Source: Candidatus Nomurabacteria bacterium
GTDB taxonomy: Bacteria; Patescibacteriota; Patescibacteriia; HK-STAS-PATE-3
Direction of reading: 5' to 3'
Length of the DNA: 64,000 nucleotides
Assembly: GCA_023898465.1 (NCBI GenBank)
Contig: CP060223.1
Coordinates: forward strand, 832,001-896,000
The position numbers were made by a program, and so were the translations under genes. Below the pieces are notes generated by a model. It had not been told where the DNA came from. It ran no database searches and worked only from the letters and a program-made list of their open reading frames with translations. The first letter of the stretch is position 1. The number at the start of each line of letters is the position of its first letter. This document shows positions 16,395 to 40,185 of this stretch, one piece after another.

Positions 16395-16432
16395 TGACGC
16401 CGTACCTAGCAAGGTGCGGCGTCTTCTTTATG
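16395..16432 (+). terminator. Rho-independent terminator (gacgccg ... cggcgtc then ttctttatg)
   Basis: 7-bp stem plus a T-rich tail, read directly. Confidence 0.5.
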
Positions 16433-16994
16433 TAAAACCTTTTTCCTCATATGCGTGATAAGAAGACCAATTCCAATCCTTTGGATCTTTTACCAAGCTA
16501 GCACGTACTGGATTGTAGTGGATATAATGAATGAGATGGTGGAGATATTGGTCAGTATCTACTACGCGGTCATAAAAAGAATCTTGCCATATCTTTTTCA
16601 TGCGACGGCGGGACAGAGACGCCCCGCCTATATGTTTATTATTACCCATAGCCAAGGCGTCTCGGCCTTGGCGGGGTATATCGGCGTCTCGGCCTTGGCG
16701 AGACTTATACATTTGTTGAGTCGTATAACTTTTAATACTATGCATCACCTCCGACACATTCTTCTTCCCTATTATCTCAAACAACACATGGATGTGATCT
16801 GGCATCACCACGTAGGCTAGCAGCCGTATCCAATGTTTCTTATGCAAGAAGAACAGAGTCTCAACGACAATCCTGGAGAGTTCTTTATTCAAGAATAGCT
16901 TTTTCCGTCGGTGGGTATTTGCGGTGACAAAATACACCCTTGTTTCAGCGTTGTAGGTACGACGAAGACGAGACATGAGGACACCTCGTGCCAC
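16428..16994 (-). mobile_element. REP-associated tyrosine transposase (RAYT / TnpA_REP, IS200-IS605 Y1 HUH family) carrying an in-frame REP-like insertion of about 33 codons between the HuH and catalytic-Tyr regions
   Basis: Co-linear with E. coli RayT motifs: VYFVTANTHRRKKLF, AYVVMPDHIHVLF (HuH), IWQDSFYDRVV and DTDQYLHHLIHYIHYNPVRASLV...DWNWSSY. The segment SRQGRDADIPRQGRDALAMGNNKHIGGASLSRRR is encoded by repeat copy C. Confidence 0.75.
16604..16710. repeat. REP-like structured repeat, copy C (core plus a partial tandem 3-prime hairpin) inside the RAYT coding sequence
   Basis: acggcgggacagagacgccccgcctatatgtttattattacccatagccaaggcgtctcggccttggcgggg followed by tatatcggcgtctcggccttggcgagac. 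Confidence 0.7.
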
Positions 16995-17039: not shown

Positions 17040-17624
17040 CTACCCATACTTCGCCAGAAGTAATCGGGCTGCCTCGCGAATATCTTCCACCCGGTAAAAG
17101 ATAAACTTACCTTGCGTGCTAATGCCCCATTCTAGTATTAATCCCTTCTTCGGCATACGGCACGCCAAGAGAATACGTTGTTTTTCAGCAGGGCTAAGAA
17201 ATTTTTTTAACCCAATGCTTTGGGTGAGTTTACCTTTTTGATAGGTGTAACTAGCTGTCACTTTCCCATAGCGCATGAGGTTCACAATTGGGCCACGAGT
17301 TGCTTCAATAACTACGCGATCACGCTCCAGTAAAATTGTGCCGCCTTTTTTCCATTTCCATGAAGGGTAGACAACAAACAAGGCGCGATGAGGGTGCTCG
17401 CGCTGCAGACGATCAACAGTGGCGGCAACTTTACTTGGTGCCACCCAATTCGCATACAAGTTTTTCCACGGACCACCGCGTACTTCCACAGTGCGAATTG
17501 TCCAGCCACGATATGCATCAATGTTTTGAATACCACGCAGCTCTTTTGAAGAACGCACAAATTGCCACTCAGGATGAGGTAGACCAGCTGCGTCTATTTT
17601 CTTTAGCCCTTGTAGGATGGTCAT
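17040..17624 (-). CDS. Truncated ATP-grasp-like protein related to the PEP-synthase/PPDK N-terminal nucleotide-binding domain (lacks the Gly-rich loop)
   Basis: AAGLPHPEWQFV resembles the aGlPVPpGFvi segment. VVIEATRGPIVNLMRYGKVTASYTY aligns with LIIEAGFGLGEAVVSGQITPDSYVV of the gene at 33780-34745. 4-nt overlap with the upstream gene. Confidence 0.4.
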   Translation of the reverse strand: MTILQGLKKIDAAGLPHPEWQFVRSSKELRGIQNIDAYRGWTIRTVEVRGGPWKNLYANWVAPSKVAATVDRLQREHPHRALFVVYPSWKWKKGGTILLERDRVVIEATRGPIVNLMRYGKVTASYTYQKGKLTQSIGLKKFLSPAEKQRILLACRMPKKGLILEWGISTQGKFIFYRVEDIREAARLLLAKYG

Positions 17625-19231
17625 AACTTACGGACAATTCCTTTCGTTGCATCGACCTCCACTTGGTCACCGTCTTTCAATACTTTGGTAGCAATCTTTG
17701 TGCCAATGACGCAGGGGATTTTTAGCTCCCGAGAAACAATGGCTGCATGCGAAGTTACGCCACCCTGCTCGGTCACAATCGCTGCAGCTTTTTTCATCGC
17801 TGCTACAATGTCCGGGTCAGTAGCAATCGAAACAAGAATATCACCGCGTTGCATTTTTGCCATATCCTTTGGACGAATAATAATCTTAACTCGTCCAGTC
17901 GCTTTTCCTACACAACCTGTCTGACCATGAAGCTCTTCACTTGATTCGTGCTTCATAGACTGCAACTGCTTCTTCATTCTCTTTGCTGCAGCGCCTACGA
18001 GAATAGTATCCCTATTCTTTTCACTGATGTAGACGCATTCTTTCACTCGTTGTTTCAGCATCGATCGAGATAAATGACCACGAGTTAAGGCGGCATGAAC
18101 TTCTTTAGGCAACATGAAGCGCATTTCTTTGAGTGAAATGTGGAGACGCCGGGCAATTTCTTTTTGCAAAAATTCCATTTTATAAAGTGCATATATCTGC
18201 GCAAAGCGACGATAAATTTTTGTTACCATGAAATCACCAAAGGCTAAGAAAAGCGTTTTCCATTTTCCGCTAATTCGGTATTGTCGCAGGTAGCGTTCAC
18301 GCAAACTATTTGCAGTCTGTAATTTCTTCTTTTCCTCTTTGAGCAACGCGGCGATGTCAGACTTCTGACCAATAAGTTTCACCAGCTCTTTTAGGTAGTA
18401 CGTAAAATGCGCAGTTTCACCAATCCACATCCTCGGTACATAGAAGTAGCTCGCATAATGCTTTTGTATACGTTTCAGTATTTCCGGACTTATCGCATCT
18501 ATCAATTGGTCAGCTCGCTGCTCTAGACCATGCTCAAATTCTTCGGTATGCGTTTGCCAGCCATAGGGTCCTGCTTCTTTATTTAAGAAAGTAGAATATA
18601 TATCAGCGAATAATTTTTTCTGTTTGGCATTTTTTTGTATGGCAAAAGCAATGTGCAAAAAATCTTCACGTTCTTTCTGAATCAGTGAAATGCTTCGTGG
18701 ATGAGTGAGCGCGACAAACACCTCATTTACTTTTGCTTCAGGTACTCCTTGCGTTGCTAAATACTGCTTCATCCGATCAGTGAGGTTGTTGTGAAACATA
18801 TCTGCAGCAACCGGTATCCAACACCACTGATAGTACTCCGTGTGCAAACGATCATGCTCAGTATATAATTGCCACAACTTAGTATTACTCTGCTTCTCTA
18901 AGCCCGTCTCGGGTAGCTTTTCAGTAAAGCGTCGTAAGCGATCTGCTTGATGCAGTATCTCTTTATTTACTTGTGTGGCAAAGGCAGGCTCTTGAATAAA
19001 ACGATTAACAATGTGATCGCCCTCGGTCTTCGCATCATCGTGATCATAATAAAACCAGAGATGGTAGCCCTGGTAATAAGTAGCCACTCGTTGATACGCT
19101 CGTCCATTCGGTTTTGCAAACTCATTAGTAAAACATGACAACCAGATTTGCGAAAAAGCAAAATCAATATCTGGAATATCCTCAGCTAGCATCCAATTGA
19201 TACTTTGCTTTTGTATTTTAGGAGAGCTCAT
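17621..19231 (-). CDS. PEP-utilising-enzyme mobile (phosphohistidine swivel) domain protein, paralog C: novel ~440-aa helical N-domain plus C-terminal His domain
   Basis: C-terminus GGVTSHAAIVSRELKIPCVIGTK matches the PpsA/PPDK/RPH phosphohistidine domain. No ATP-grasp or PEP-binding TIM-barrel motifs. Confidence 0.7.
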   Translation of the reverse strand: MSSPKIQKQSINWMLAEDIPDIDFAFSQIWLSCFTNEFAKPNGRAYQRVATYYQGYHLWFYYDHDDAKTEGDHIVNRFIQEPAFATQVNKEILHQADRLRRFTEKLPETGLEKQSNTKLWQLYTEHDRLHTEYYQWCWIPVAADMFHNNLTDRMKQYLATQGVPEAKVNEVFVALTHPRSISLIQKEREDFLHIAFAIQKNAKQKKLFADIYSTFLNKEAGPYGWQTHTEEFEHGLEQRADQLIDAISPEILKRIQKHYASYFYVPRMWIGETAHFTYYLKELVKLIGQKSDIAALLKEEKKKLQTANSLRERYLRQYRISGKWKTLFLAFGDFMVTKIYRRFAQIYALYKMEFLQKEIARRLHISLKEMRFMLPKEVHAALTRGHLSRSMLKQRVKECVYISEKNRDTILVGAAAKRMKKQLQSMKHESSEELHGQTGCVGKATGRVKIIIRPKDMAKMQRGDILVSIATDPDIVAAMKKAAAIVTEQGGVTSHAAIVSRELKIPCVIGTKIATKVLKDGDQVEVDATKGIVRKL

Positions 19232-20331
19232 GCTCCTAATCTTCGCACAATTCCCTGGTTCGCGTCTACTTCTACGAGATCGCCGCTTTGTAGACTACTG
19301 GTAGCAAATTTTGTACCAATAACGCAAGGAACTTTCAACTCCCGGGCTACGATTGAAGCGTGACTAGTCACTCCACCTTCATCAGTAACAATCGCCCCAG
19401 CTCGCTTCATGGCTGGTATATAACGCGGATCAGTCATTGAGGTTACTAAAATTTCGCCCTGGCGTAGTTTTGTAGCATCGGCGATTTTTTGAATTAAACG
19501 CACTTTGCCTTTTACCTTGCCAGGGAAAGCCACGTTGCCCTTGAGTAGCCCCTTCGTTGCTTTCGGTAATGACAAACCAAAGCGTTTCAATGCGCTAGCT
19601 GAATTTGAGTACGCATATACGTTTTTGCCTTGCTTCAACACAAAACGTTTTCTTCGATTACGTAGCCTTTTTATCGACGGGAGTTTTCCAGAATTTAAGT
19701 ACTCAGTAAATTCACTAAGTAGCAAATACTCCAAAACCTCTATTGCGAGCTTTTCAGACTTTTCAATTTGACGCAGTAATCTTTTCTGCAAATCAATACC
19801 TACCCGGTAAAAGTCAGCTCCTTGTGCACGGCCTTGTAAGAAGAGTTTCAGGACTGCGGGAGTAACTTGATCTGAAACAAACTCTGGCACTTCGATACAA
19901 GCAACTAAGAACGGTAGAGCATCGTGAAAATATTCATGCAATTGAAGTATCGCCGCTTTCGGATCAGCGTGCTCCTGTTGTACAAATATATTATACGAGC
20001 GAAGTAAGGCATCGTGCTGCTTTTTTTGCTGCTTCAGTTTTGCCAGCGTACCATGTGTTTTTACCCAACCTTGCGCTGCGCCTTGTAAATCTTCATCCGC
20101 CATAAAGTGCCATAAAACACCATTCTCAACATACACATGGATTGGGCGAATCTGATGCGAAAAAAAATCTCGTGAAGCTTTATTAAGAAATGCTTCAATA
20201 ACTACTGAGGTTGCTAATACAGTATAATCTCTTTGATGTGGGGTATAGTGAAGCTTCATAGCTTTTACTCTAGCACATAATTCAGCACTCTTATCAAGAA
20301 AGAGGCGGCAGTTCATATTGACTGCCGCCAT
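19228..20331 (-). CDS. PEP-utilising-enzyme mobile domain protein, paralog B (shorter N-domain, 367 aa)
   Basis: C-terminus GGVTSHASIVARELKVPCVIGTK. 4-nt overlap with paralog C. Confidence 0.7.
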   Translation of the reverse strand: MAAVNMNCRLFLDKSAELCARVKAMKLHYTPHQRDYTVLATSVVIEAFLNKASRDFFSHQIRPIHVYVENGVLWHFMADEDLQGAAQGWVKTHGTLAKLKQQKKQHDALLRSYNIFVQQEHADPKAAILQLHEYFHDALPFLVACIEVPEFVSDQVTPAVLKLFLQGRAQGADFYRVGIDLQKRLLRQIEKSEKLAIEVLEYLLLSEFTEYLNSGKLPSIKRLRNRRKRFVLKQGKNVYAYSNSASALKRFGLSLPKATKGLLKGNVAFPGKVKGKVRLIQKIADATKLRQGEILVTSMTDPRYIPAMKRAGAIVTDEGGVTSHASIVARELKVPCVIGTKFATSSLQSGDLVEVDANQGIVRRLGA

Positions 20332-20610
20332 GTAGACGCGAGCCCCACAGAGCTCTTTCCCTAGGTCTGTCTACCTGACCGAGTTCGCCCAAAGACGATC
20401 TCCTGCTGTTTACCTCTTTCGAGGTGGCTTGGACTTGCTCCGCATGAGGGGACAGCAGTTATTCCTCGCAACGGGGTCCCACACCCGAGACTTCCGGTTG
20501 GCCGTATCCGTTGCAGCTTCTTGAAGAACAATGCGGAGTCACCGCGAAGTCTCGATTAGGACAATGCCACCCGCTTCTTCATGAGAGAAACCTCCCTTCC
20601 ATCAAAAAGC
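20332..20610 (-). promoter_or_regulatory. Internal promoter (extended -10 TGgTATTAT) plus a ~270-nt GC-rich structured leader with a tiny SD-preceded ORF (MKKRVALS)
   Basis: Minus-strand reading: ttgctc-N18-tggtattat, then gggagg-N9-atgaagaagcgggtggcattgtcctaa. Downstream lie a 9-bp long-range stem (cgagacttc/gaagtctcg), a GNRA hairpin (cctc-gaaa-gagg) and a palindrome (agagctct). GC is far above the flanks. Confidence 0.35.
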
Positions 20611-20661
20611 CATGGCATTAAAAATAATACCACGCTGTACTTATACTGGCGAGCAATTTTT

Positions 20662-22227
20662 TTACAACTTTCTGACTAAACCCTTGGTAGCATCCACTTC
20701 CACCTTGTCACCATCCTTCAAAATCTTATTCGCTACCTTCGTCCCTACTACGCAGGGCACACCAAGCTCGCGCGAGACAATAGCCGCATGTGAAGTCAAA
20801 CCTCCGGCGTTGGTCACGATTGCAGCGGCTAGCTTCATTGCTGGTACCAGACTGGGATAGGTTGTCTCAGAAACCAAAATATCACCTTTTTTCATTTTTG
20901 GAATATCCGCCGGCACCTCAATAATTTTTACCGTACCAGAAGCAGCTCCCGGAGAAGCGCATGAACCCGTTAGCTCACTTGCCTCGGTGGTAATCAAGGT
21001 ATCCTCTTTAGGAATTTCTTTCATGAACTTCTTTGCCTTCTGACCAGTCAAAACGATATATTGCTTCTTATCGCAATACGCCACTGTCTCCCGAGTTCGC
21101 GCCAGCAGCTCTTTCATAGTCGGGATCGACTTCCCTTGGAGCAAATCCTCAATCTCCCATGAGTTCAGGGCTCGCACAGTTTCCAAAGTCAGCTTATGTC
21201 GCTGAGCAATTTCACGGAAGAATGGTTCATAGCAGTACATACCATGATAGAGTGCGCCTTTTCGAAATTCCTTTATGTACACTATTTCTTGTCCCATGCG
21301 GATGAGCTGCCATATATTGCCTTGGAGGTGTAGAGATTTTTTTAATCGAGCCTGTTTTTGCTTCAGGAGCCTTTCCTTCACCTTCATATCAGCCAAAATC
21401 TGTTTGGGTGACTCACCGCTCTTTAGTAATTCCCTCCAACGAGTGAGGAAGTAGCGAAAGGAATAAGCTGGCCCCTTATACGCGTAGGGAATCCATCGCC
21501 ATTTCTCATAGTGCGCTCGCAGTAAAGCAGCTACTTTTTGATCCACTTCTGCTAATCCCTTTTCGGCCTTTGCGATGGGCGAACGAAGTAGGTGATTTCG
21601 CACCTTAGCAGAGCGCCGAAGCTGATCAGTAATCTGCAAAAACTCTCTTTCCTCCTGCGCAGCAAAACTCAAGCGGGGTGGGCTAGTAAGTAAACTAAAT
21701 ATTTCCGGCAAGGTTGCTGAGTCACCATAACAATCAATTTGTTTCTTGAGCGCTGCTTCTATACCTGTTGACACGCGGGCCTGATCAGCATCAGCCAACC
21801 AAGTGACCGCCGCACCGACCCCGTGGGAAAGTACATGCCAGCGTAAGACCTTACGAAACTCTCGAAGTAACTGTACATCAGTCATCTCACGGATTGGCAG
21901 TGCATATAAATTCCGAGAAGCCTGCATGAAGTTGATTGACCAATCCTCAACCTGCTTCAAGGTCTTTAATCCCCATTGTGGCTTTTGCAACATCTTCTGC
22001 GATAAGCCATCGGCCTGGGTATCAAATTCAGATCGCCGAAACCACATCTGAGAAAAGTCACCTTTGTAGTAGGTAAAGTACTCACTCAGGTGTCCGCCGA
22101 GTCCCATTCGCTTCCATTCCAAAAGAAAAAAGCGAATCGGCGTCCCCATCATAAAAATAGTATTTTCAGTTATTTCAGCTGGGACAAACCACTTGTCACT
22201 TTGCTTTTTTATGGCCTTTTTACCCAT
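20662..22227 (-). CDS. PEP-utilising-enzyme mobile domain protein, paralog A (521 aa)
   Basis: C-terminus GGLTSHAAIVSRELGVPCVVGTK. Overall collinear with paralog C. Confidence 0.7.
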   Translation of the reverse strand: MGKKAIKKQSDKWFVPAEITENTIFMMGTPIRFFLLEWKRMGLGGHLSEYFTYYKGDFSQMWFRRSEFDTQADGLSQKMLQKPQWGLKTLKQVEDWSINFMQASRNLYALPIREMTDVQLLREFRKVLRWHVLSHGVGAAVTWLADADQARVSTGIEAALKKQIDCYGDSATLPEIFSLLTSPPRLSFAAQEEREFLQITDQLRRSAKVRNHLLRSPIAKAEKGLAEVDQKVAALLRAHYEKWRWIPYAYKGPAYSFRYFLTRWRELLKSGESPKQILADMKVKERLLKQKQARLKKSLHLQGNIWQLIRMGQEIVYIKEFRKGALYHGMYCYEPFFREIAQRHKLTLETVRALNSWEIEDLLQGKSIPTMKELLARTRETVAYCDKKQYIVLTGQKAKKFMKEIPKEDTLITTEASELTGSCASPGAASGTVKIIEVPADIPKMKKGDILVSETTYPSLVPAMKLAAAIVTNAGGLTSHAAIVSRELGVPCVVGTKVANKILKDGDKVEVDATKGLVRKL

Positions 22228-22640: not shown

Positions 22641-23321
22641 ATGGCGAATATCGTCGTCTTTGATCCGATCCGTGAACATTTCAGTGACTACATGATTGGG
22701 CTAGCCAGTCATCAGGTTATCGTGAGAAATACGGTCGAGGACGTCAATGGGACGCTCCGATCCTTCTCACCCGACCTGATCCTGGTAGCTGAATCAGAGC
22801 AGTCAGCTGCCGTGATCGCGGCCGTGCAACGGAGTGATCGACGCATACAAGCGCCAACACTCCTTATCCCTGCATCACTCGAAGGACCTGATGACCAGCG
22901 ATGGCAACAGAGCCGTCAGCTCGGCGTCGCGGGATGGATCCCTCGACCTCAGCAACGAGGCTTCAAGTCACTCCTGGCTGAAGACTGGCGACGTAATATC
23001 GTCAGTCTCATGCTCTGGCTATGCAATCAGTTGCACCGAGAGCAACCACTGAGTGTGTGGTTCCGAGAACATCAAAGCGTCGTGGCTATGGTGGGCCAAG
23101 AAACCTATCATCGCCTCATCACCGGCTCATCCATCCAGTATGCACCCGAAGAATATCGTCGACTCCAGAGGACACTGGCAATCTGGGGAGTACGCTATCC
23201 GCTGGATCGCTATCTCCAGGCTGTCGCTCTTGCAGGACGCAAGGCAGAGGCACAGAGACTCTCAGATCGCGTGCTTACAAACATGGCGAGGCGCATGCTT
23301 TCGTCTGAAGCACAAGGCTGA
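22641..23321 (+). CDS. Receiver-like (pseudo-REC / CheY-like fold) domain protein, high-GC
   Basis: SD agggagg. N-terminus MANIVVFDPIREHF...SPDLILVAESE follows the REC pattern (hhhDD...PDhhhhD) but with D-P instead of DD. Confidence 0.4.
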   Translation: MANIVVFDPIREHFSDYMIGLASHQVIVRNTVEDVNGTLRSFSPDLILVAESEQSAAVIAAVQRSDRRIQAPTLLIPASLEGPDDQRWQQSRQLGVAGWIPRPQQRGFKSLLAEDWRRNIVSLMLWLCNQLHREQPLSVWFREHQSVVAMVGQETYHRLITGSSIQYAPEEYRRLQRTLAIWGVRYPLDRYLQAVALAGRKAEAQRLSDRVLTNMARRMLSSEAQG

Positions 23322-23352
23322 CTTCTACCATTCCTGCAAGGGAGGTTCTGAA

Positions 23353-24072
23353 ATGTCGCACATCGTGATCCTCGACCAAGACCCGATCCGACAGCTGTGG
23401 TATCAATCCGCGCTGCCGGGTCACGTCATCTCCTTCGTGGAGACCGCCCTCGGAGCGATTCGATTGGTGCAGCAGGTTCCCACCGCTGCCATCATTGCCG
23501 AGTACTTCGATGGGTCTGGCACTCGGCTCCTGGAGGAGCTCGATCGCCTGGTCCGGAACTGTCGCTTCGCCGCCCCGCCAGTCTACCTGACCGGCACCAT
23601 CACTATGCTGGACAACACGATGGAGAAGGCCGTGCAGCTCGCGCAGAATCGTGGAGCTCAGGACTTCATCCCGCATCCGATCAGTCGTGAGCGCTTCCGG
23701 GAACGGCTGGCCGACGTGCTCGAACAAGACAGAGGAGGTCGTGTCGTCGGACACATCACCTTTTGTGAGGCACCGCCGGTCACGACCTCGGAACTCGTCG
23801 ACCTGACCTATGAAATCCCGGAGGCGCGCGACCTGATCAACGCAACGATCGGGATGCGCACCTTCTCCAGCATGCTGAATCGAGCTCTGGCTGTGGAAGG
23901 ACACGGACCCGCCCAGATCGTCTGTGCGGAAATCGGTGTCTGGGCTACGGAAGGAATTCCCACGCTCACCGCTGCTGAGTTCTCGGCTGAGCTCGGCGAT
24001 AAGGAGAGAACGGCCTGTCAGGATATTCTCTTCGAGATCGCCCACTCCCTGCTCTTTGACCGCGCTGCCTAG
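23353..24072 (+). CDS. Second receiver-like domain protein with an unknown C-terminal domain, high-GC
   Basis: SD agggagg before ATG at 23353 (MSHIVILDQDPIRQ...AAIIAEYFDG). The 23053 extension is in a frame overlapping the previous gene and lacks an SD. Confidence 0.4.
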   Translation: MSHIVILDQDPIRQLWYQSALPGHVISFVETALGAIRLVQQVPTAAIIAEYFDGSGTRLLEELDRLVRNCRFAAPPVYLTGTITMLDNTMEKAVQLAQNRGAQDFIPHPISRERFRERLADVLEQDRGGRVVGHITFCEAPPVTTSELVDLTYEIPEARDLINATIGMRTFSSMLNRALAVEGHGPAQIVCAEIGVWATEGIPTLTAAEFSAELGDKERTACQDILFEIAHSLLFDRAA

Positions 24073-24183
24073 CGCAACCCGAGGCGTCTACTTTCCCCAA
24101 GTAGGCGCCTTTCTTCTTGACTTTTTTATCTAAGTGGATAAACATGCCCACGGACACTGTTCGACAAACCATAGGAGGCGCAC

Positions 24184-24432
24184 ATGCCGGAAATCGCACT
24201 GGAACAGAAGTTCATCGACATCGTAGCTGAGCAACTTGGCGTCGACAAGAGACGGGTCACCCCTAACCAGAGCGCCAAGGGCGACCTCGGTGCGGACTCG
24301 CTCGATCTCGTCGAGCTCATCATGGCCCTGGAAGAGGGTTACGAAATCAAGATCGACGACGGAGAGCCGGACAACCTGGAAAACCTGGGTGAACTCCAGG
24401 CGCTCATTCTGTCCAAGGTCGCCGCCAAGTAG
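24184..24432 (+). CDS. Acyl carrier protein
   Basis: SD ataggagg. 82 aa, acidic, with the DLGADSLDLVELIMALEE phosphopantetheine-attachment (DSL) motif. Confidence 0.85.
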   Translation: MPEIALEQKFIDIVAEQLGVDKRRVTPNQSAKGDLGADSLDLVELIMALEEGYEIKIDDGEPDNLENLGELQALILSKVAAK

Positions 24433-28241: not shown

Positions 28242-31200
28242 CTAGACGAGTTCAGTTGCTTTTGGCTTTGGTTCTCGCTTGAATACTCGATAGAGTACTG
28301 GAATCACTATCAAGGTTCCAATAGTCGAGAAAATCAATCCGGAAATAATAGCCGTCCCTAAGCCTTGCCAGAAAGGATCAACCAAAGTTAATGGAATGAT
28401 ACCACCAATAGTCGTAATTGAGGTGGAGAAAATCGGCTTGAAACGACTATAGCCAGTGTGCACCAATACATCCACCCAAGTCGCTTCCGGCATAGCTTTC
28501 CGATGTCGATTCATAGCGTCGATAAATACAATTGCATCATTCACCACCACACCCACTAAAGCGATAACACCGAGTCCAGAAATCATATTCAAGCTACTTC
28601 CAACAATATGCAATCCAGGGAAAACACCAATCATGGCTAAAGGCACGGTGAAGAGAATAAGCAATGGCTGCATAAAGGAGTTAAACTGATTCACCAATAC
28701 GAGATAGACAAAGATCATCGCTAGGATAAATACAATCTGAAGATTTGAGTAGTCTTCTTGGAAGGTAGCGAGAGCGCCACCATAGATAACCCCATCAGAA
28801 GCTAGACCTAGTTCATCAAGCTTTTCAGTTGAAAGGTAATCCTTTACAGCTTGATCAAGTTCAGCTTGTGCCGTGTCCGGAGCATCCTCAGTTAATTTTA
28901 CGTTAATGGTTGCGACTCGCTCACCGTCTACTCGGGAGATCTGTACGGGTGCAGTAACCTCTTCAATGGTCGCCACATCTTGGAGTTGAACGATCCGTCC
29001 GCTCAGGGTAGGAAGAGCTAAGGCTTTCAAGTCATCAACTGAATCAGTGGAGGCATCAGAGAAGCGAAGATATAAATCATCAGACACGCCATCATTTCGA
29101 ACCACAAAGCTTCCAATCTTCTGCTCAGTAAACACTGCGTTAATTGCGCCAGCTGCCACCAAAGGATTTACACCTTGGGCTTGCAGCCTATTTTCATCGA
29201 GCGCCACGCGGACTGATGGCTGCGATAACTCTTCAAGTCCATTTTCTACTTCGGCGACATGCTCTTGATCTTGAATAAACCCAACAAGATCATTCGCTGC
29301 GTTGGTTAGTACTCCTGAATCAGTACTTAATAATTCAACAACCAAATCAAAGGTTGGCTCTGGAGGTCCATACGAAGCGTCATTCGCTTCAATTTGAATT
29401 TCCGGATCGATTTCAGCTCGAACTGCATCCAATCGTTCGTTATAAACATCAACAATTTCGTGAATAGTCATCCCGTCAGTCCGATCAACCGGTTCGGTAA
29501 AGGTCATGTATAAGGTTGTGCCAAAACTGTAGAAGTTTTCGAAGTAGGGCAGCTCAATTGCAACATCTTGTGATCGAACAATCACGTCCTTTTGTTCTTC
29601 AAAAGGCGTTCCGGTTGGGAATTCAAACTCAGTCAAAATCACATTCCCGTCATTTGATGGGAATTGCTCAAACTTCAACATTGGTGCAAAAACACCAAAG
29701 CTAACAACGAGTAATACTGTGGTGACGCCAATCACTGCCCATCGCTTCCATGTGCTTGGTAACACCGCGCGCATAAAGTTCGCGTACTTGGCCCGAATCA
29801 AATCAAGGAAACGCTGGCCGTAAAATACAACCGCTGGGAACACTGTTGCCTTTTCCCACGACTTCAACTTTCGGCCCATTTTTTCTTCTTTGGTTTCCTT
29901 TTTCAAGAAAGCCCGGCCGAGTACTGGAGTGACTGAAATGGCCAGCAAGTAAGAAACGAGCAGAGTGATAATGATCGTGAACGGGATAAACTTCAGGAAT
30001 GCACCAATAATTCCGCCAAGCATAGCAAAAGGAATAAACACAATAACTGTAGTGATTGTGGCTGCAGTGACTGCTGGACCAAATTTGTGGATAGCAGTGA
30101 GCGCAGCTTCCCCTTTACTCGCGCCGTGATCAATTTCGTGCACAATCCCTTCAGCAATCACAATCGCGTTATCAACCAAAATACCGAGAGTCAAAATCAA
30201 CGCGAACAGCGTCAGAATATTGAAGCTGAAGCCGATCATGTTCAAGATAAAGAAGGTGGTCAAGAAGGCCAGCGGAATAATTAAAGCGACGACAAAAGCA
30301 GTCCGGAGGTTGATAAAGAAAAGCAGCACTAAGAGAATAAGCACTAAACCAAGGTAGCCATTATTCACTAAGCTCGAAATCTGATCTTCAATAAATGGAG
30401 CAGTATCATAGAGCGTGACTACTTCAACACCTTCCGGCAAAACTTGATCATTCTTGATTTCCTGAATTGCTGCGGAGGTCGCATCTTTAATTCGAATAAT
30501 ATCGCCGTCAGCTTTTTTGTAGACTAATAAGTAGACCGACTCCCGGGAGTAGGCTTGGCCATCCTTTTTATATCCGCCAAAGTGAATTGATTCATTATCT
30601 TTTGGTTGGCGAGTAATTTCAGCAATATCACCAAGACTGACTCGGCCAAATGAAATTTTAGCCAAGGCATCTAAAGAAGTGACTGGTGCGACTACATTAA
30701 TTGCTTGTCGTCGACCATCCTCAGTTTCAACTCGTCCACCAGGGAGCGAGGTAATAAATGCCTGGACAGTTTGTTGAATTTGATCTGCGCTTAATCCAGC
30801 AGCGGCTACTGCTGAACCGTCTAAGGTAATTTGAACTTGATATTCATTCTCCGGAACAACATCGATTCGATCAATTTCGCTACTGGCATTTTCTAAGCGA
30901 GGCTGTACTGTATCAACAAAAGCAAGCAAGTCGTTGGTTGATTCACCATTACTCCCAACAATACCATAGGCAATTGCCGGCCCAGTCACATCAAGCATCT
31001 CTGTATTTACTTCCACATTCTCCGGTAGGCTCAGGCTATTTAATTCTTCGTTGATTGTAGCTGCAGCTGCCTCGGTCTTTGGAACCGACTCCATCTCGAT
31101 TGTCAGAAAGCCAAAGTTGTTTGAAGCATTCGATCGAATACTTCCGACGCCATCAACTTGTTCAACAACTTGTTCAATTGGGATAACTACTTCGCGCTCA

Positions 31201-31397
31201 ACATCGGCCGAAGAAGCACCAGGATATACCGCTTGTACAAAAATATAATTCGTTGGGATTTGCGGGAAATCCTGACGTTGGTTATTGCTCAATCCCCAAA
31301 AACCACCTAAGAGGATGGCAATTAAAAGAAGGATGGTCACCCGATAGCGGGTCAGGAAGAAATTTGACCACCGAACAAGAAAAGATTGTTTATCCAT
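28242..31397 (-). CDS. RND superfamily efflux transporter permease (AcrB/HAE-like), 1051 aa
   Basis: 12-TM topology with two large extracytoplasmic loops. Conserved TM4-like segments (ALIIPLAFLTTFFILNMIGFSFNILTL, GILVDNAIV). Confidence 0.7.
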   Translation of the reverse strand: MDKQSFLVRWSNFFLTRYRVTILLLIAILLGGFWGLSNNQRQDFPQIPTNYIFVQAVYPGASSADVEREVVIPIEQVVEQVDGVGSIRSNASNNFGFLTIEMESVPKTEAAAATINEELNSLSLPENVEVNTEMLDVTGPAIAYGIVGSNGESTNDLLAFVDTVQPRLENASSEIDRIDVVPENEYQVQITLDGSAVAAAGLSADQIQQTVQAFITSLPGGRVETEDGRRQAINVVAPVTSLDALAKISFGRVSLGDIAEITRQPKDNESIHFGGYKKDGQAYSRESVYLLVYKKADGDIIRIKDATSAAIQEIKNDQVLPEGVEVVTLYDTAPFIEDQISSLVNNGYLGLVLILLVLLFFINLRTAFVVALIIPLAFLTTFFILNMIGFSFNILTLFALILTLGILVDNAIVIAEGIVHEIDHGASKGEAALTAIHKFGPAVTAATITTVIVFIPFAMLGGIIGAFLKFIPFTIIITLLVSYLLAISVTPVLGRAFLKKETKEEKMGRKLKSWEKATVFPAVVFYGQRFLDLIRAKYANFMRAVLPSTWKRWAVIGVTTVLLVVSFGVFAPMLKFEQFPSNDGNVILTEFEFPTGTPFEEQKDVIVRSQDVAIELPYFENFYSFGTTLYMTFTEPVDRTDGMTIHEIVDVYNERLDAVRAEIDPEIQIEANDASYGPPEPTFDLVVELLSTDSGVLTNAANDLVGFIQDQEHVAEVENGLEELSQPSVRVALDENRLQAQGVNPLVAAGAINAVFTEQKIGSFVVRNDGVSDDLYLRFSDASTDSVDDLKALALPTLSGRIVQLQDVATIEEVTAPVQISRVDGERVATINVKLTEDAPDTAQAELDQAVKDYLSTEKLDELGLASDGVIYGGALATFQEDYSNLQIVFILAMIFVYLVLVNQFNSFMQPLLILFTVPLAMIGVFPGLHIVGSSLNMISGLGVIALVGVVVNDAIVFIDAMNRHRKAMPEATWVDVLVHTGYSRFKPIFSTSITTIGGIIPLTLVDPFWQGLGTAIISGLIFSTIGTLIVIPVLYRVFKREPKPKATELV

Positions 31398-33779: not shown

Positions 33780-34745
33780 TTATACAGCAAGCGTCGTAAT
33801 CGGGCGGCTTTGCGTCACATAAAATTTCTTCTTTTCCTTGGCCCACTCGACATCCACCGGGAAACCATAATGCCGCTCTATCAATACAATCAATTTCGCC
33901 AGGGAGATAATTTCTGCTTTTGTTAAGCACTGCTTCCCGCCCTTTGCTGCGCTGAGAGATTTCCAAGAATTTCCACCCTTACTTGAACGGGCCAGCATCT
34001 TTTCCTGCTCCACAACATTCACGTCCAACAGTTTGAAACCGCGCTTATCAACCACATAACTGTCCGGCGTAATCTGACCCGAAACAACTGCCTCGCCCAG
34101 TCCAAAGCCAGCTTCAATGATAAGCTGGTTCTTATCTTGCGTCACCGGATGTACGGAAAAAGCAGTGCCCGATACTTCGCTCTGTACCATCTTCTGCACG
34201 ACAACTGCAACGGAAATCTTTTTCTTATGCAACTTTTGCTCGAATCGATAAAAAATTGCCCTTGGGGTAAAAAGAGAAGCCCAGCAACGCTGTACGTTTT
34301 TGAGAAGCTGCGCTTTCGTCGTATTTAAATAAGTATCAAGCTGCCCTGCCCAGGCAGCCGACGCGCTGTCCTCAGCCGTCGCACTTGAACGCACGGCCAC
34401 ATAGGACGCCTGAAGACGTGCATGTGCCGCGCTAATTTCCCTAGCAATATCTTTTGGCATCTTTGCCTTGAGGATCAAGCCTTGAATAATTTCACTCGCC
34501 AAATCAATAGTGTGCATTTCCCTCTTATCAACCTTAGCGAGTTGTGCTTGAATCTCCACCCCTAAATCTGTCTCAGCTAAAAAGCGCTCAAAAGCCTCAG
34601 CTGCAATAACAAAACCTGGCGGGACTGGAATTCCTGCCTGTGTCATCTCACCTAAACTAGCCCCTTTACCACCTGCTAAGCCCGCATCTTTTTTACCAAT
34701 CTGCTTGAAAAAATGTATGCATTCCATAGAGAAAGTATAGCACAA
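33780..34745 (-). CDS. Standalone PEP-synthase/PPDK N-terminal ATP-grasp nucleotide-binding domain protein (PPDK_N), 315-321 aa
   Basis: KKDAGLAGGKGASLGEMTQAGIPVPPGFVI Gly-rich loop. VAVRSSATAEDSASAAWAGQLDTYLN and IIEAGFGLGEAVVSGQITPDSYVVDK hallmark segments. No His or PEP-binding domain. Confidence 0.8.
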   Translation of the reverse strand: MCYTFSMECIHFFKQIGKKDAGLAGGKGASLGEMTQAGIPVPPGFVIAAEAFERFLAETDLGVEIQAQLAKVDKREMHTIDLASEIIQGLILKAKMPKDIAREISAAHARLQASYVAVRSSATAEDSASAAWAGQLDTYLNTTKAQLLKNVQRCWASLFTPRAIFYRFEQKLHKKKISVAVVVQKMVQSEVSGTAFSVHPVTQDKNQLIIEAGFGLGEAVVSGQITPDSYVVDKRGFKLLDVNVVEQEKMLARSSKGGNSWKSLSAAKGGKQCLTKAEIISLAKLIVLIERHYGFPVDVEWAKEKKKFYVTQSRPITTLAV

Positions 34746-34782: not shown

Positions 34783-36885
34783 ATGATTATACGACGTGAA
34801 ACCTTAGTCACCCTGGCAGTCTCTTTTGGTATTATTATCCTCCTAAGTATTGGTGTGTACTACATTGGCACCTCGATCACACCTCAGAGCAGCAACACGA
34901 ATACGACAACGAATAGCAATCAGAATGTGGCTCCCGGACTGAAGCGTTTTGTGTCAGCTGAGGATTTCTCCCAATATCTGACAAGCGCAAGTCGACTCAA
35001 TACCCAGTATGGACTCCGTGATTCAGTTCTCAATGTAGTTACTCCTACTGCTTTTGAGCTAGAGTCAAGCGGTACTAAGAGCACAGCTGATCGCGTCTCA
35101 CAAACCAACGTGCAGGTAATGGGTATTGATGAGCCGGATATTGCCAAAACAGATGGGCAGCGTATCTACTACAGCCAAGATACCTACTACGGAGCATTGG
35201 AGTATCGAGGTATCAGCGATGAGTTATTAAAAACCTCACCTGCCTATACGCAGACTTCAAGCATTCTCAATGCCATACCAGCAAACGCACTCGCTGTCGC
35301 TGGCACATTACCCACTAGCGGACAGCTGCTCCTGACGGACAACGAAGTGCTTGTCCTGGGCTATGACGGCGTACATGCTTATCCGGCAAATACGAGCACG
35401 GTAAGTGAGGCGACTTGGGAGATGTCCTACGGAGATGCCACTTCATTAGTCACTGCGCGTTTACGAGAAGACACACTCTATCTTGTCACCAGCACCTCAC
35501 TGAATACCACCCAGCCATGCCCGATCACGCCACTACGAATTGCTGAAGGAGATGTGAGCATTGCCTGTACTGATATCTTCCACCCAGTGAATCCAACGCC
35601 AATCGATGTTGTCTACACTGTCTTTGCCATCGACCCAAGCAGTGGTGAAATAAAACAGGAATTAACCCTCAGTGGCCTCTCAGGACAATCTGTTGTCTAT
35701 GTTTCGCCCGAGACCCTCTACCTCACCTATACCTACACGAGTGATTGGGTCAATTCATTCCTAGATATTCTCATCACTGATACTGCTGATATTTTACCTA
35801 GTGAATTAATTGCAAAATTACAAAGACTCCGCACCTATGACTTGAGCGCTGAGGCACGCTTAACCGAGCTCGCCACCTTGCTTGGTGAATATGACGCAAG
35901 CATTTCAAATGAGGAGAAAGAAAACTTCCAAGAACAACTCACCACTGCAGTTGAACAAGGTGTGAAAGAGCGGCTGCGACAATGGGAACGAACTGGGATT
36001 ATTGCGGTTGATCTTGATCGACTGCAAGTGGCAGCGACCGGTGAAGTGCCTGGTCATCCCCTGAATCAATTTTCACTTGATGCTTATGCCGAGACCCTCC
36101 GTATTGCTACCTCCAGCGATGCTCGTTTTGTTGCCTCTTTCTCCGCCACCAGTCAAACAAATAATGACCTCTATATTCTCGACAAAGACTTGAAGCCCTT
36201 AGGCTCTATTCTCAATCTCGGGGAAGCAGGGGAAACTATCTATGGAGTACGCTTTGTCGAAGATACGGGCTACCTTGTTACCTTCCGTCAAACCGATCCC
36301 TTCTACGTCTTAGACCTGAGTGATCCGAAGAAGCCTATAGCTAGCGGCGAGTTAAAAATTCCTGGGTACTCTTCTTACCTGCATCCTATTGCGACGGATC
36401 GCATCCTCGGAGTAGGGCAGGATAATTTTCGTGTGAAGGTTTCTCTCTTTGATGTGAGCGATAAAAATGCGCCAAAGGAACTATCCACGCTTACATTAGA
36501 AAATGAGTACTGGTCTGACGTGCTTAATACTCATCACGCTTTTCTCCAAGATGCTGATCACTCCATCGTCTTTATCCCAGGATCGCAGGGAGGACATGTT
36601 ATCTCCTATACGAATGGAACTTTAAGCGAGGTGAAAAAGATTGAAGGCTTCGCTGTGCAGCGGGCACTCTACATTGATAATACGCTCTATGTCCTGGGCA
36701 GTAGTGAGGTGAGTGCAGTCGATGAAACGAGCTGGGAAACCATAAGCAGCGTAAGTCTCAACCAAAATAGGACAGGGGTTGAAGAGCCACAAAGCACGGA
36801 ACCAAGCGTTCCGATAGAGGACCTGCCAACTACTGAAGCAAATACTGGCGAAGGCACTAGTGCTACAGGCGATTCGACGGAATAG
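34783..36885 (+). CDS. Secreted/membrane-anchored beta-propeller domain protein (Beta_propel/COG4880-like)
   Basis: N-terminal TM anchor. C-terminal region with YVLDLSDPKKPIASGELKIPGYSSYLHPI...ILGVGQD typical of that family. S/T-rich tail. Confidence 0.5.
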   Translation: MIIRRETLVTLAVSFGIIILLSIGVYYIGTSITPQSSNTNTTTNSNQNVAPGLKRFVSAEDFSQYLTSASRLNTQYGLRDSVLNVVTPTAFELESSGTKSTADRVSQTNVQVMGIDEPDIAKTDGQRIYYSQDTYYGALEYRGISDELLKTSPAYTQTSSILNAIPANALAVAGTLPTSGQLLLTDNEVLVLGYDGVHAYPANTSTVSEATWEMSYGDATSLVTARLREDTLYLVTSTSLNTTQPCPITPLRIAEGDVSIACTDIFHPVNPTPIDVVYTVFAIDPSSGEIKQELTLSGLSGQSVVYVSPETLYLTYTYTSDWVNSFLDILITDTADILPSELIAKLQRLRTYDLSAEARLTELATLLGEYDASISNEEKENFQEQLTTAVEQGVKERLRQWERTGIIAVDLDRLQVAATGEVPGHPLNQFSLDAYAETLRIATSSDARFVASFSATSQTNNDLYILDKDLKPLGSILNLGEAGETIYGVRFVEDTGYLVTFRQTDPFYVLDLSDPKKPIASGELKIPGYSSYLHPIATDRILGVGQDNFRVKVSLFDVSDKNAPKELSTLTLENEYWSDVLNTHHAFLQDADHSIVFIPGSQGGHVISYTNGTLSEVKKIEGFAVQRALYIDNTLYVLGSSEVSAVDETSWETISSVSLNQNRTGVEEPQSTEPSVPIEDLPTTEANTGEGTSATGDSTE

Positions 36886-38188
36886 TCTTTGCGCTCACTG
36901 AAGCCTTGTCCTCAGTGCAGCATTTTTTGCTGCAACCGTTTTGACAACAGCAGCAATCACACTTCCGCCGCCAAAACATAAGCAGAAGTATAAGCAGTAG
37001 CACCAGCAGGCCAAGCACTAGGATGCCAATGGCAATCCAGGAATAAAGCCAGAAGATTCCCGCAAACCAGAAACCACTCTCGGGTGCATATTTCACAACC
37101 TCAACACTGACGGAACTGCTCCGAATATTACCCGCATTGTCGATCGCTAATATGGTTATGGTGTGTGTTCCGTAGCTTAATTCCGGTAAGAGAAAAGGCT
37201 CCGTTGCTCCAGGTAGAGCAATAATGCGCTGCACATCATCAATCAATACTTCGTAGCGATCTATGCCTGACAGGGCGTCCTCAGTGCTGAAATCGATATT
37301 GGGTCGTAGATTGGTTGTTGGTTGATCACCCTCAACTCGGACTGAAAAAGGAAGTGGTGGGGTAGTATCAATCCGAACACGGAAATGGGTAGCCTCACTC
37401 CAGCCCGCTTCGTTTTTCGCTTTAATGTGGAAGTACCAAATACCATCTTCCTTGTCCTGATATTGGACGCTTAGCTCAGTGCCCTGCCCATCATCATTAG
37501 GAATCGTACCGGCACTTTGATCTAGGAGGTAACTAAAATCCTGCGCCTCACCATCAACACTCCAGGAAAGTAGTGGGTCAGCGTTGGCGTACCAAGAGTC
37601 CTGATTCGTGTGCGTATCAGACCAGACTGTTGGAGCAGGTAGTGGCTGCGGCTGAGGTGGTTCTTCTTCCGGTTGTTCTGGCTCAGTGCTTGGCCGTGAT
37701 GGTGGAGGAGCACTAATAACAAGAATGGCCGTGCCAGTTGATCCGAGTGCATCTGTGCCATAACCGTCGTTAAGCAAAACCCGAGCTCCCTCCATACTAA
37801 TAACTGCGGTTCCAGGCTGCTTGGCTTTAAACACTGCACGGAGAATAGTACCAGCCGGACCTGCATAGCCAGGCGTAGGTAAGCCCCCGGTGAAATCAAT
37901 CGTTCCACTGCCATTGTCATACACCGGGCCAATTGGCCAAAGTGTAAATAAGGAACCTCGATCAACTGATTCGAGTGTAACGAGGTCTTTAGGGAAATCA
38001 ATTCTGGCCTCCGCTGAGTTAACCGCCTCACCGCCCGAATTTACAACCAAAGTAACAGTCACTCGTTGTCCAACTGTTACATTTGAGCGAGCCGGGGAAA
38101 AGAATAAGGTTGCTTTAGCAAAAACAAAACTCGGCACCAAAAGTGCAAGTAATGTGAGTCCACTAATGCGAGCTAATCTCTTTTGCAT
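36863..38188 (-). CDS. Cohesin-like domain surface protein with a conserved middle domain, C-terminal TM helix and Cys-rich tail
   Basis: Signal peptide. VGQRVTVTLVVNSGGEAVNSAEARIDFPKDLVTLESVD...GTIDFTGG...AVFKAKQPGTAVISM follows the cohesin beta-sandwich pattern. Paralog of the next gene. Confidence 0.5.
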   Translation of the reverse strand: MQKRLARISGLTLLALLVPSFVFAKATLFFSPARSNVTVGQRVTVTLVVNSGGEAVNSAEARIDFPKDLVTLESVDRGSLFTLWPIGPVYDNGSGTIDFTGGLPTPGYAGPAGTILRAVFKAKQPGTAVISMEGARVLLNDGYGTDALGSTGTAILVISAPPPSRPSTEPEQPEEEPPQPQPLPAPTVWSDTHTNQDSWYANADPLLSWSVDGEAQDFSYLLDQSAGTIPNDDGQGTELSVQYQDKEDGIWYFHIKAKNEAGWSEATHFRVRIDTTPPLPFSVRVEGDQPTTNLRPNIDFSTEDALSGIDRYEVLIDDVQRIIALPGATEPFLLPELSYGTHTITILAIDNAGNIRSSSVSVEVVKYAPESGFWFAGIFWLYSWIAIGILVLGLLVLLLILLLMFWRRKCDCCCCQNGCSKKCCTEDKASVSAKTIPSNRL

Positions 38189-39308
38189 GTTTTTGCTTTC
38201 TGCGTAAACGATAGTGCCATAACAACAGTATAGCAACCAAGAGCAAAAGTACCCAGAAGTACCATGGCAGGACTTGATACCAGGCCTGCGGTAATGCGGC
38301 GAGCTCAGCGGTCTGAATATTACCAGCTAAATCATAGGCCTCGACCCGCACGACATCACTACGCTCCTGATCAACCAGCAAATATGGACTCCGCACATTG
38401 ATAGAACGCTGCCCGCCCTCTATCACGTCATAGCGATCTATACCTGAGGTCCGATCAATACTCTGGAATGAAATAACTGCTTTGCCAGAAAACTCATCTG
38501 CTTCCTTTGTGGAAATTATTTCAAAAGGTTCAGGTGGGGTAGCATCAATCTGCACCCGGTAACGAGCCACCTGACGCCAATCATCACCAGAAGTTCTTTC
38601 AAGGAGTGTAAAATAATAAATACCATCCTCTTGATTATCATACTCAACAAAACCACTCGCATCATCTGGTAATTCATCAGGCTGCTTTTCCGCATTTTGG
38701 GAAAAACTATAACTATATAACGCATTTGCTCGCGGCTCCCAAGTAAGCACCACATCACGTTCAGTGTACCAGGTATCTTGATCTGGATGCGTTGGCGAAT
38801 AAACAGTCACTTGATAGGCTGGCGACTGAATAACATTGATATCGAGTGCCTGCGTTGTTAAAGGAAGACGACTTCCCTCACCATTATGCATATACACTGC
38901 TGCTAGCTCCTTCGGTACAGTAAATCTAGCCTCACCGACTTTTATTGCTCGCAAAGTCATCTGCAATACTGTGGCATGAAAAGCATAGGTGCCGCCTGGA
39001 ATACCGCCAACAAAATGCACAGTGTGGGTTGCTGGCTGGTGAAGAGGAGGCTCAGGCCAAAGCTGTAAAAATGATTGCCCAATGCTAATATCCTCTAAGA
39101 CAAAAAGATCCCCGGGATAATGCACATCCGCTTCGATCGCGTTCATGGGTAAATGGTCACTATCAACCACTACGCTTACCAAAACGGTATCGCCTAAGCT
39201 AATGTTCTCCTGTGGTGCTTGAAGAGAAACTTGAGCAGCCTGAACTGCCTGGGCAAAGAAAATGCCGATACCAAAAAGGCTAAAAAATAGAAGTGAACGC
39301 TTCATCAT
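38163..39308 (-). CDS. Cohesin-like domain surface protein (paralog) with a C-terminal TM anchor
   Basis: Same architecture. Shares the DTWY...EYDNQEDGIYYF...DTTPP.PF...SGIDRY block with the previous gene. Confidence 0.5.
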   Translation of the reverse strand: MMKRSLLFFSLFGIGIFFAQAVQAAQVSLQAPQENISLGDTVLVSVVVDSDHLPMNAIEADVHYPGDLFVLEDISIGQSFLQLWPEPPLHQPATHTVHFVGGIPGGTYAFHATVLQMTLRAIKVGEARFTVPKELAAVYMHNGEGSRLPLTTQALDINVIQSPAYQVTVYSPTHPDQDTWYTERDVVLTWEPRANALYSYSFSQNAEKQPDELPDDASGFVEYDNQEDGIYYFTLLERTSGDDWRQVARYRVQIDATPPEPFEIISTKEADEFSGKAVISFQSIDRTSGIDRYDVIEGGQRSINVRSPYLLVDQERSDVVRVEAYDLAGNIQTAELAALPQAWYQVLPWYFWVLLLLVAILLLWHYRLRRKQKHAKEISSH

Positions 39309-39309
39309 A

Positions 39310-40185
39310 TTAGCCAGTCCAATGGAACATCATAATGCTAAAATCAACCACATCAACTAAGCCACTCTTATCAATATCAGCCCTAGTGTTGGCCGGGTGT
39401 GTATCAAGCCAGTAATAAAGCAAAATACTGAAGTCGACTAAATCAACTGAGCCGTCACAGTTTAAATCAGCAATGTTTGCGTAGCTGCAAGGATCTGGTT
39501 CAGTTGCCTCACTTACTACAAAGGTGAGTGTAGAGCTGTATTCAGAAATGCTGCTATCTGTTGCAACTGCACGAGCTCGAATACTATAGGTTCCAATACT
39601 GCTCAGCTCTTGCCCGCCCTGTAACGTATAAGACCATCGTCCGTCGGTATGAGCCGTTGCAGAAAAACTTTGATCACCATCTGGACCCGAGAGATAAAGT
39701 GTAAGCTGACTATTTGGCGCGGTATAACCTTGAATTTGGACACCTTCATCTAATCGAATACTGCTTGCACTGCCTTGTATGGTGGGGCCGAGAAAAATAC
39801 CACTCGCGCTTACCGTGGTGCCCTCTGCTATAGTAACCGACAAGGATAAACTAGGACCAAGCACGCCGTCTATATCAGTTCCCTGAATAGTGAAAGTGTA
39901 GGTGCCGGCTAAAATTTCGCTCTGAGTAGCAAAAGCAGCTGTACTAGTTGCAGTCGTACTCAACCAGGTACTTCCATTTTTCAATATTTGAATACTTGCT
40001 GAGGGGTAGGCGAGGCCCTGAAACTGTACAATGGTTTTTGGTTCTTCAGGCGGAGGCGGCGCTTCAACCACCGCACTCACCGAGAGTGTGTGCTGATCTG
40101 TCACTGTAGCGGCAAAGGCGCTAAGCAAAAAAAGCGGCAGAATGCTTAGCATGCTGACGACGGCAACGATGCTCCGTGTCTTCAC
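39310..40185 (-). CDS. Secreted protein with C-terminal double dockerin repeat
   Basis: Signal peptide. C-terminus DLNCDGSVDLVDFSILLYYW...DIDKSGLVDVVDFSIMMFHW gives two Ca-binding dockerin repeats. Confidence 0.65.
   Translation of the reverse strand: MKTRSIVAVVSMLSILPLFLLSAFAATVTDQHTLSVSAVVEAPPPPEEPKTIVQFQGLAYPSASIQILKNGSTWLSTTATSTAAFATQSEILAGTYTFTIQGTDIDGVLGPSLSLSVTIAEGTTVSASGIFLGPTIQGSASSIRLDEGVQIQGYTAPNSQLTLYLSGPDGDQSFSATAHTDGRWSYTLQGGQELSSIGTYSIRARAVATDSSISEYSSTLTFVVSEATEPDPCSYANIADLNCDGSVDLVDFSILLYYWLDTHPANTRADIDKSGLVDVVDFSIMMFHWTG

Follow-up and report, generated by a model that had tools for sequence, protein, structure and literature searches.

Four minus-strand open reading frames (ORFs) lying within 17040-22227 of a 64-kb window (the whole stretch of DNA analysed) probably make up a locus for the substrate-side subunits of two-component, ATP-dependent small-molecule dikinases of the rifampin phosphotransferase (RPH) type. 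The DNA belongs to a metagenome-assembled genome of Candidatus Nomurabacteria, where the locus carries tags H6760_04220 to 04230. We name the four ORFs genes A, B, C and D (Table 1). All four, listed in a first-pass annotation, were found where it had put them, and the length of B was then revised to a probable 343 amino acids (aa).

As had also been proposed there, the C-terminal domain of A, B and C alike is a PEP-utilizers phosphohistidine domain, here called the swivel. Pfam family PF00391 matches their C-termini with E-values of 4e-26 to 1e-25 (A, residues 446-516, 1e-25; B, residues 290-360, 5e-26), and the conserved His is intact. In a six-frame scan of the window, the only three GGxTSH sites were those of these proteins, GGLTSHAAIV (A), GGVTSHASIV (B) and GGVTSHAAIV (C). 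With their upstream residues they fit T/S-x-x-G-G-x-x-x-H, as TNAGGLTSH, TDEGGVTSH and TEQGGVTSH, respectively. The catalytic His (His495 in C) is invariant in both the C and the B families.

In their N-terminal domains, C and A have the substrate-binding fold already known from RPH, with its phosphotransfer motif conserved. When C was searched against PDB as a single sequence, residues 368-534 aligned with RPH 701-864, extending past the His domain. A family profile lengthens the match to C 294-538 against RPH 613-866 (E 1e-19) and places RPH R666-E667-Y668-x-K670 on C T337-K338-I-Y340-R341-R342, of which T337-K338-x-Y340-R341-R342 is invariant in the C family. In RPH, mutation of R666 or E667 abolishes the second half-reaction, phosphotransfer (PMC4844700). 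The homology of A to C spans the whole protein (28% identity, E 7e-61), and K-E-F-R-K of A aligns to K338-I-Y-R-R of C. Because the profile alignment falls on an invariant motif and A and C are homologous throughout, these N-domains are not new. The first-pass annotation had described the N-domains as novel and as neither ATP-grasp nor TIM barrel; the second half stands, and the first fails for C and A.

C and A show the order of an H-type subunit, with the RPH-like substrate-binding domain first and the His swivel after it. Among solved structures, RPH alone covers C, at an identity of ~15%. HpeH, which is the substrate subunit in a published two-component dikinase, is covered by RPH alone as well (PMC12167813). 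C proteins are 52-60% identical across bacteria (Patescibacteria) and DPANN archaea, and some family members carry N-terminal helix-turn-helix or DUF2683 domains.

B is probably an H-type subunit as well, with its N-domain shortened or different. In a profile-profile comparison, its match to C is limited to B184-367 against C354-536. A truncated pseudogene of a long paralogue is ruled out by ~40 B orthologues of equal length, ~342 aa, which are 36-45% identical.

We considered that the proteins could be diverged pieces of phosphoenolpyruvate (PEP) synthase or pyruvate phosphate dikinase (PPDK) that interconvert pyruvate and PEP in central carbon metabolism. PEP synthase and PPDK share the His-swivel mechanism and are the closest sequence matches, for the swivels and for a 321-aa ATP-grasp protein encoded elsewhere in the window (NF005057, E 1e-36 to 1e-98; PDB 8a8e), and the GGxTSH motif with its Thr is of the PEP synthase type. 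However, Pfam finds the PEP/pyruvate-binding TIM barrel in none of the five proteins (A to D and the 321-aa protein), nor any family at cutoff other than PF00391 or PF01326. NCBIfam PEP synthase cutoffs of 598-740 bits are far from reached, by A to C with 113-129 bits or by the 321-aa protein with 318-329 bits, and the N-domain fold is RPH-type. Because a PEP/pyruvate-binding domain is missing and the equivalog scores fall far under cutoff, we reject this role as very improbable.

The other half of a two-component dikinase, a separate PPDK_N-type ATP-grasp, is present in the genome as the 321-aa protein. The first-pass annotation rightly took it for a complete standalone PPDK_N. Alignments pair it with residues 8-316 of RPH and with HpeI (9goj, E 9e-53). 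Its K27, R119, T138 and the Glu of DVEW correspond to RPH K22, R117, T136 and E297, and every RPH nucleotide-binding residue that has been tested by mutation is kept.

Natural gene fusions link the parts and lend indirect support to their functional coupling. P0042 (902 aa) is a C-family protein with a full PPDK_N fused at its C-terminus. P0315, P0326 and P0389 (321-347 aa) join a D-like domain to a PF00391 swivel, which would tie the mini ATP-grasp of D functionally to swivel domains.

The standalone PPDK_N gene is flanked by a full-length AcrB-type RND transporter gene (1051 aa, 28242-31397, minus strand) and a Beta_propel protein gene (34783-36885, plus strand). Such a pump is a surprise in Patescibacteria, which are generally regarded as having no outer membrane. 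Close to the array of a related locus, L023, there is a Beta_propel gene too.

The first-pass annotation regarded the layout as a disassembled RPH-like system, and this agrees with our analysis. As a new architecture it does not hold, since the two-component RPH homologues PpsAB (phenylphosphate synthase), CreHI and HpeHI have been published with the same division (PMC12167813). In these, the ATP-grasp (I or B subunit) is likewise apart from the subunit with the substrate-binding domain and the His swivel (H or A). Our system differs from them in several respects. They are 1:1 pairs, whereas here one or two ATP-grasps stand against three H-type paralogues (up to 11 in relatives). The full-length ATP-grasp gene is not adjacent here, and a further, mini ATP-grasp of 194 aa that lacks the Gly-rich loop Lys is encoded. 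HpeH is ~640 aa, whereas the H subunits here are 340-550 aa. The hosts of the published pairs are degraders of aromatic compounds; those here are Patescibacteria and DPANN archaea, with no carboxylase context.

RPH itself (PDB 5hv1 and 5fbs; PMC4844700) has the same three modules, each with the same fold, and its apex phosphotransfer motif R666-E-Y-x-K corresponds to K338-I-Y-R-R of C. RPH is a single chain with ATP-grasp, rifampin-binding domain and His domain in this order, whereas the modules are split here. In the lone natural fusion with a full PPDK_N, P0042, the order is permuted, with the ATP-grasp C-terminal.

Protein D is a minimal ATP-grasp of the PPDK_N/HpeI type, from a family that has no Pfam or NCBIfam model, and it is not a fragment. 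It matches no Pfam or NCBIfam family, PF01326 included, even at E-values up to 1. Its predicted structure is best matched by HpeI and the RPH ATP-grasp, and the predicted fold is a complete ATP-grasp core. When the D family was broadened with members from an exhaustive profile search, and only then, hhalign gave a collinear match to a small PPDK_N alignment (E 2.8e-5, probability 74%). D is shorter than PPDK_N by large deletions of ~125 residues.

The first-pass annotation took D as an ATP-grasp fragment missing its Gly-rich loop. The ATP-grasp fold and the loss of the loop Lys were borne out, the latter for the clade of D. "Fragment" was not, because the whole family has this size. The 43 close homologues, all from Patescibacteria, are all ~195 aa, and the exhaustive search gave 111 clusters at 50% identity, nearly all of 180-215 aa.

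From the hhalign equivalences, D R44 corresponds to RPH R117, D E165 to RPH E297, and D position 3 to RPH/PPDK K22. R44, E107 and E165 are 95-98% conserved in the family, and D orthologues share 50-66% identity overall. Of 101 family members, 60 have Lys and 17 have Arg at position 3; in the window clade, which starts MTI[LY]QGL, this residue is Ile. The RPH mutation K22A removes all activity (PMC4844700).

These features bear on two accounts of D that differ from ours. In one, D is a pseudo-ATP-grasp without catalytic activity that serves the swivels as adaptor, regulator or chaperone, and all phosphorylation comes from the full-length PPDK_N. A loose analogue would be PpsC, the stimulatory third subunit of phenylphosphate synthase. 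The loss of the Lys specifically in the array-dwelling clade, the ~125 deleted residues, and the presence of a complete PPDK_N in the same genome and near arrays are consistent with a dead D. The strong conservation of R44 and E165, the putative nucleotide/Mg ligands, argues otherwise, and so does an orthologue identity that exceeds the expectation for a mere scaffold. We consider a dead D somewhat unlikely.

In the other account, D is the dedicated, active ATP-grasp for the swivel proteins of its own cluster, its free N-terminus or a different basic residue stands in for the Lys, and the distant 321-aa PPDK_N serves other targets. D is translationally coupled to C, lies inside swivel-gene arrays in 10 loci, retains a complete core fold with the three conserved residues, and has relatives fused directly to swivel domains, all as expected of an active D. 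However, the clade has Ile at position 3, where 77 of 101 members have Lys or Arg and where substitution by Ala kills RPH. Furthermore, C-family genes in DPANN archaea and other Patescibacteria were seen on contigs without a close D, one C-family protein is fused to a full PPDK_N, and PPDK_N genes accompany arrays. An active, dedicated D therefore appears doubtful to us.

Pairing of D with one specific downstream paralogue was also considered and rejected, as the gene after D, from one locus to the next, is nearly always a singleton or a member of a different group.

Three side observations concern D homologues. In L015 (10001-10587), the homologue is split into two ORFs of 83 and 114 aa by a frameshift or as a pseudogene, and the array of seven paralogues around it is otherwise intact. 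In L012 (MGBV01000074.1, labelled Rokubacteria), a close D homologue stands alone, and in L005 (CAZQLY010000003.1, labelled Gammaproteobacteria), another has a typical swivel-gene array. These two are probably mis-binned contigs rather than cases of real horizontal transfer.

Related genomes were examined by collecting the loci around D homologues (designated L001 and so on), which were then analysed with local hidden Markov models, and by clustering the N-domains at 32% identity. D usually lies within long co-directional arrays of swivel-domain genes, and does so in 10 independent loci, with a PPDK_N gene nearby in at least five. The arrays contain 11 swivel-domain genes in L007, 10 in L008, 7 in L015, 6 each in L001, L005 and L010, and 5 in L003, compared to 3 in the window. 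Therefore, the first-pass view that the substrate module is triplicated gives too low a number, for relatives have 5 to 11 paralogues per cluster. Linkage of D with swivel genes is frequent across related genomes but not universal, failing in L006, L009, L018 and L019.

Most paralogues are singletons in the N-domain clustering. The recurrent orthogroups are g1 (C), g2 (A, with orthologues in L003, L008, L010 and L015) and g3. The window retains g2, g1, one short-type gene and D, and is without g3 and the HAD genes that accompany arrays elsewhere. A HAD gene overlaps the start of D in L001, L008 and L010, and a second HAD gene precedes the conserved paralogue g3, always so in the four loci where g3 is tabulated. 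The phospho-His motif of g3 is a variant, GGPGITSHP instead of GGxT[SC]HA, and the catalytic His is kept in all paralogues checked, g3 included.

A standalone PPDK_N gene lies 4-10 kb downstream of the arrays in L001, L003, L007 and L010. In L023, a PPDK_N gene is inside the array, with a 342-aa B-like gene directly after it. C-family genes in DPANN archaea and other Patescibacteria are found beside more swivel paralogues and phosphatase genes (LMWPc, Metallophos, HAD). Their surroundings further include NUDIX, HIT, and nucleotide or sugar-nucleotide genes, and Maf is among the recurrent neighbours. The phosphatases, Maf, NUDIX and the genes for nucleotides or sugar-nucleotides give a hint of scavenged metabolites without identifying a substrate.

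In three independent genomes, those of the window, of L003/L004 and of L007, a gene for an IS200-like Y1 transposase (PF01797) is beside the mini ATP-grasp gene or one gene off. It may have been domesticated, or it may drive the rearrangement of arrays; as a neighbour, it is not necessarily a functional part of the system.

Such arrays could instead form a detoxification or resistance battery, each fast-diverging paralogue disabling its own antibiotic or toxin through phosphorylation, as RPH does to rifampin, and not metabolic or salvage kinases. The homology of fold and motif to RPH, whose family is described as including antibiotic-modifying members, would fit a battery. The same is true of the IS200-like transposases embedded in arrays and of paralogues that are mostly singletons by N-domain, even in related genomes, around a constant His domain. 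On the other hand, g1, g2 and g3 are conserved, and the identity of C between bacteria and archaea suggests a housekeeping substrate. Clustered phosphatases would reverse an inactivating phosphorylation. The RPH equivalogs NF041857 and NF000283 of NCBIfam match only the His region of the proteins and stay far below cutoff (65-66 bits against 999 and 47-49 bits against 1700), and PADLOC defence models match none of the five proteins. We judge a resistance battery unlikely as an account of the arrays. RPH-style detoxification is possible for the fast-diverging paralogues; for the C group, with its high conservation, it is less likely. A known anti-phage system was likewise considered and is unsupported, PADLOC giving no matches.

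We favor the reading of the locus as substrate-side dikinase subunits, for which the following course is conceivable. A and C would each bring an RPH-like substrate-binding domain and a C-terminal swivel, and B probably likewise. An ATP-grasp acting in trans would place the beta-phosphate of ATP on the swivel His, with AMP and Pi set free. Next, the swivel would go back to its own N-domain and transfer the phosphate to a hydroxyl of the bound small molecule at the K-x-Y/F-R-R/K apex motif. The ATP-grasp partner would be the full-length 321-aa PPDK_N, common to all paralogues, which is the most plausible general charging subunit. D may be a stripped-down second ATP-grasp that docks swivel domains, its clade having lost the equivalent of Lys22, and is perhaps a specialized or auxiliary partner rather than the main catalyst.

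This scheme resembles Enzyme I of the PEP-dependent phosphotransferase system only as a conceptual analogue, in which one phosphoryl-donor module serves many specificity modules. The swivels are homologous, but the donor here is presumably ATP via the ATP-grasp, not PEP, and there is no HPr or EII. The one-to-many relation here comes from gene counts alone.

Several points weigh against the dikinase reading. The swivel domains are closer to that of PEP synthase than to those of RPH or HpeH, and their GGxTSH motif keeps the regulatory-type Thr of PEP synthase, where RPH and HpeH have Met. Gene A and the PPDK_N gene are 11.5 kb apart and not co-transcribed. D is without the Lys equivalent to RPH K22, essential there, and no equivalent of RPH Thr136 could be placed in it. 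The gene after D belongs to no conserved orthogroup, so that no specific partner of D can be named. D is sometimes alone among housekeeping genes (L006 and L009), and distant archaeal homologues of D are likewise alone in L018 and L019. Profile comparisons of the N-domain of B (~160 aa) with that of C, with the D family and with PPDK_N all give a probability below 2%, so that a resemblance to C noticed by eye in its N-terminal beta-hairpin region is not claimed. Lastly, the evidence for the reading consists of sequence matches, predicted folds, conserved residues, fusions and gene neighbourhoods.

The coordinates of the genes and of the related features are collected in Table 1. The tight transcription unit is B-C-D only, because A is set apart from B by ~400 nt with a terminator-like hairpin, and the sequence itself shows a TGgTATAAT box 8 nt ahead of the ATG of A. 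The start and stop codons overlap as ATGA at the B/C and C/D junctions, and AGGAG precedes the start of C. The coupling by 4-nt overlaps, which the first-pass annotation had extended to all the genes, thus applies to B/C and C/D and not to A.

Table 1 Coordinates of the genes and related features (positions in the window or, where an L number is given, in that locus)
Feature	Location	Positions	Strand	Description
Gene A, 521 aa	window	20662-22227	-	RPH-type substrate-binding domain and phosphohistidine swivel; orthogroup g2
A-B spacer, ~400 nt	window	20260-20661	-	GC-rich; terminator-like hairpin at 20329-20304
Gene B, probably 343 aa from Met25	window	19228-20259	-	Short-type swivel protein; maximal ORF to 20331, 367 aa
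Gene C, 536 aa	window	17621-19231	-	Probable H-type dikinase subunit; orthogroup g1
Gene D, 194 aa	window	17040-17624	-	Minimal PPDK_N/HpeI-type ATP-grasp without the Gly-rich loop Lys
IS200-like Y1 transposase gene	window	16428-16994	-	PF01797, E 1e-11; 46 nt downstream of D
Standalone PPDK_N, 321 aa	window	33780-34745	-	Probable I-type subunit; PF01326, E 8e-97
g3	L001	10650-12143		After a HAD gene
g3	L003	11532-13040		After a HAD gene
g3	L008	16856-18376		After a HAD gene
g3	L010	14256-15776		After a HAD gene
IS200-like Y1 transposase gene	L003	10182-10721		By a D homologue
IS200-like Y1 transposase gene	L007	9419-9982		By a D homologue

The hairpin in the A-B spacer reads GGCGGCAGT...ACTGCCGCC and is followed by a T-run. 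The spacer has no Rfam match and no ORF support, its fold z-score is only -2.2, and blastn and tblastn against the related loci found no similar sequence. A structured RNA or a gene remnant in the spacer is unsupported by these searches.

Two gene models needed attention. B most likely starts at Met25, because its family consensus begins there and NCBI also annotates 343 aa. For C, the public annotation (H6760_04225, P0001) has 392 aa from the internal Met145, and this start is wrong because residues 1-144 are conserved in the family, with many invariant positions in the family alignment.

Other features of the window were noted. Two overlapping ORFs of 226 and 339 aa (22641-24072, plus strand), without a Pfam match, occupy a 54% GC stretch adjoining gene A. 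An Rfam match to weev_FSE, a viral frameshift element, at 24083-24109 on the minus strand (27 nt, 40.1 bits against a gathering threshold of 40, E 7e-4) lies just upstream of an acyl-carrier-protein-like ORF (24184-24432) and is almost certainly a chance hairpin. On the minus strand are also genes for surface proteins with cohesin, dockerin and Big_13 domains (36863-40185) and a giant ORF of 3342 aa (44669-54697).

Searches of a full-text literature library, whose silence does not prove absence, found no description of such arrays in Patescibacteria or DPANN archaea. What appears undescribed is the ~195-aa mini ATP-grasp family with its swivel fusions, the one-to-many layout, the arrays of up to 11 diverged subunits, and the recurrent pairing with HAD phosphatases. 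The analysis also corrects database annotation, where C is called as 392 aa and the D family is without assignment. With 194 aa, D is about the smallest dikinase-type ATP-grasp so far, useful for minimal fold requirements and for protein engineering.

These genomes are ~1 Mb, yet some spend at least 15 kb on these paralogues. The identity of C across two domains of life argues for an important function in organisms whose metabolism is mostly deduced from gaps. A bolder idea, which we offer as speculation, is that Patescibacteria and DPANN archaea have hub-and-spoke kinases, where one or two charging ATP-grasps, the full PPDK_N and the minimal one, would serve up to ~11 interchangeable, substrate-specific swivel proteins. 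With the HAD, LMWPc and Metallophos phosphatases of the same clusters, these might be the main route by which such ultra-small, biosynthetically poor cells phosphorylate and trap scavenged metabolites, for example nucleosides, sugars or cofactor precursors, replacing conventional kinases. If the one-to-many relation is true, the recently recognized two-component dikinases would reach beyond aromatic catabolism and form a kinase platform that is modular and expandable.

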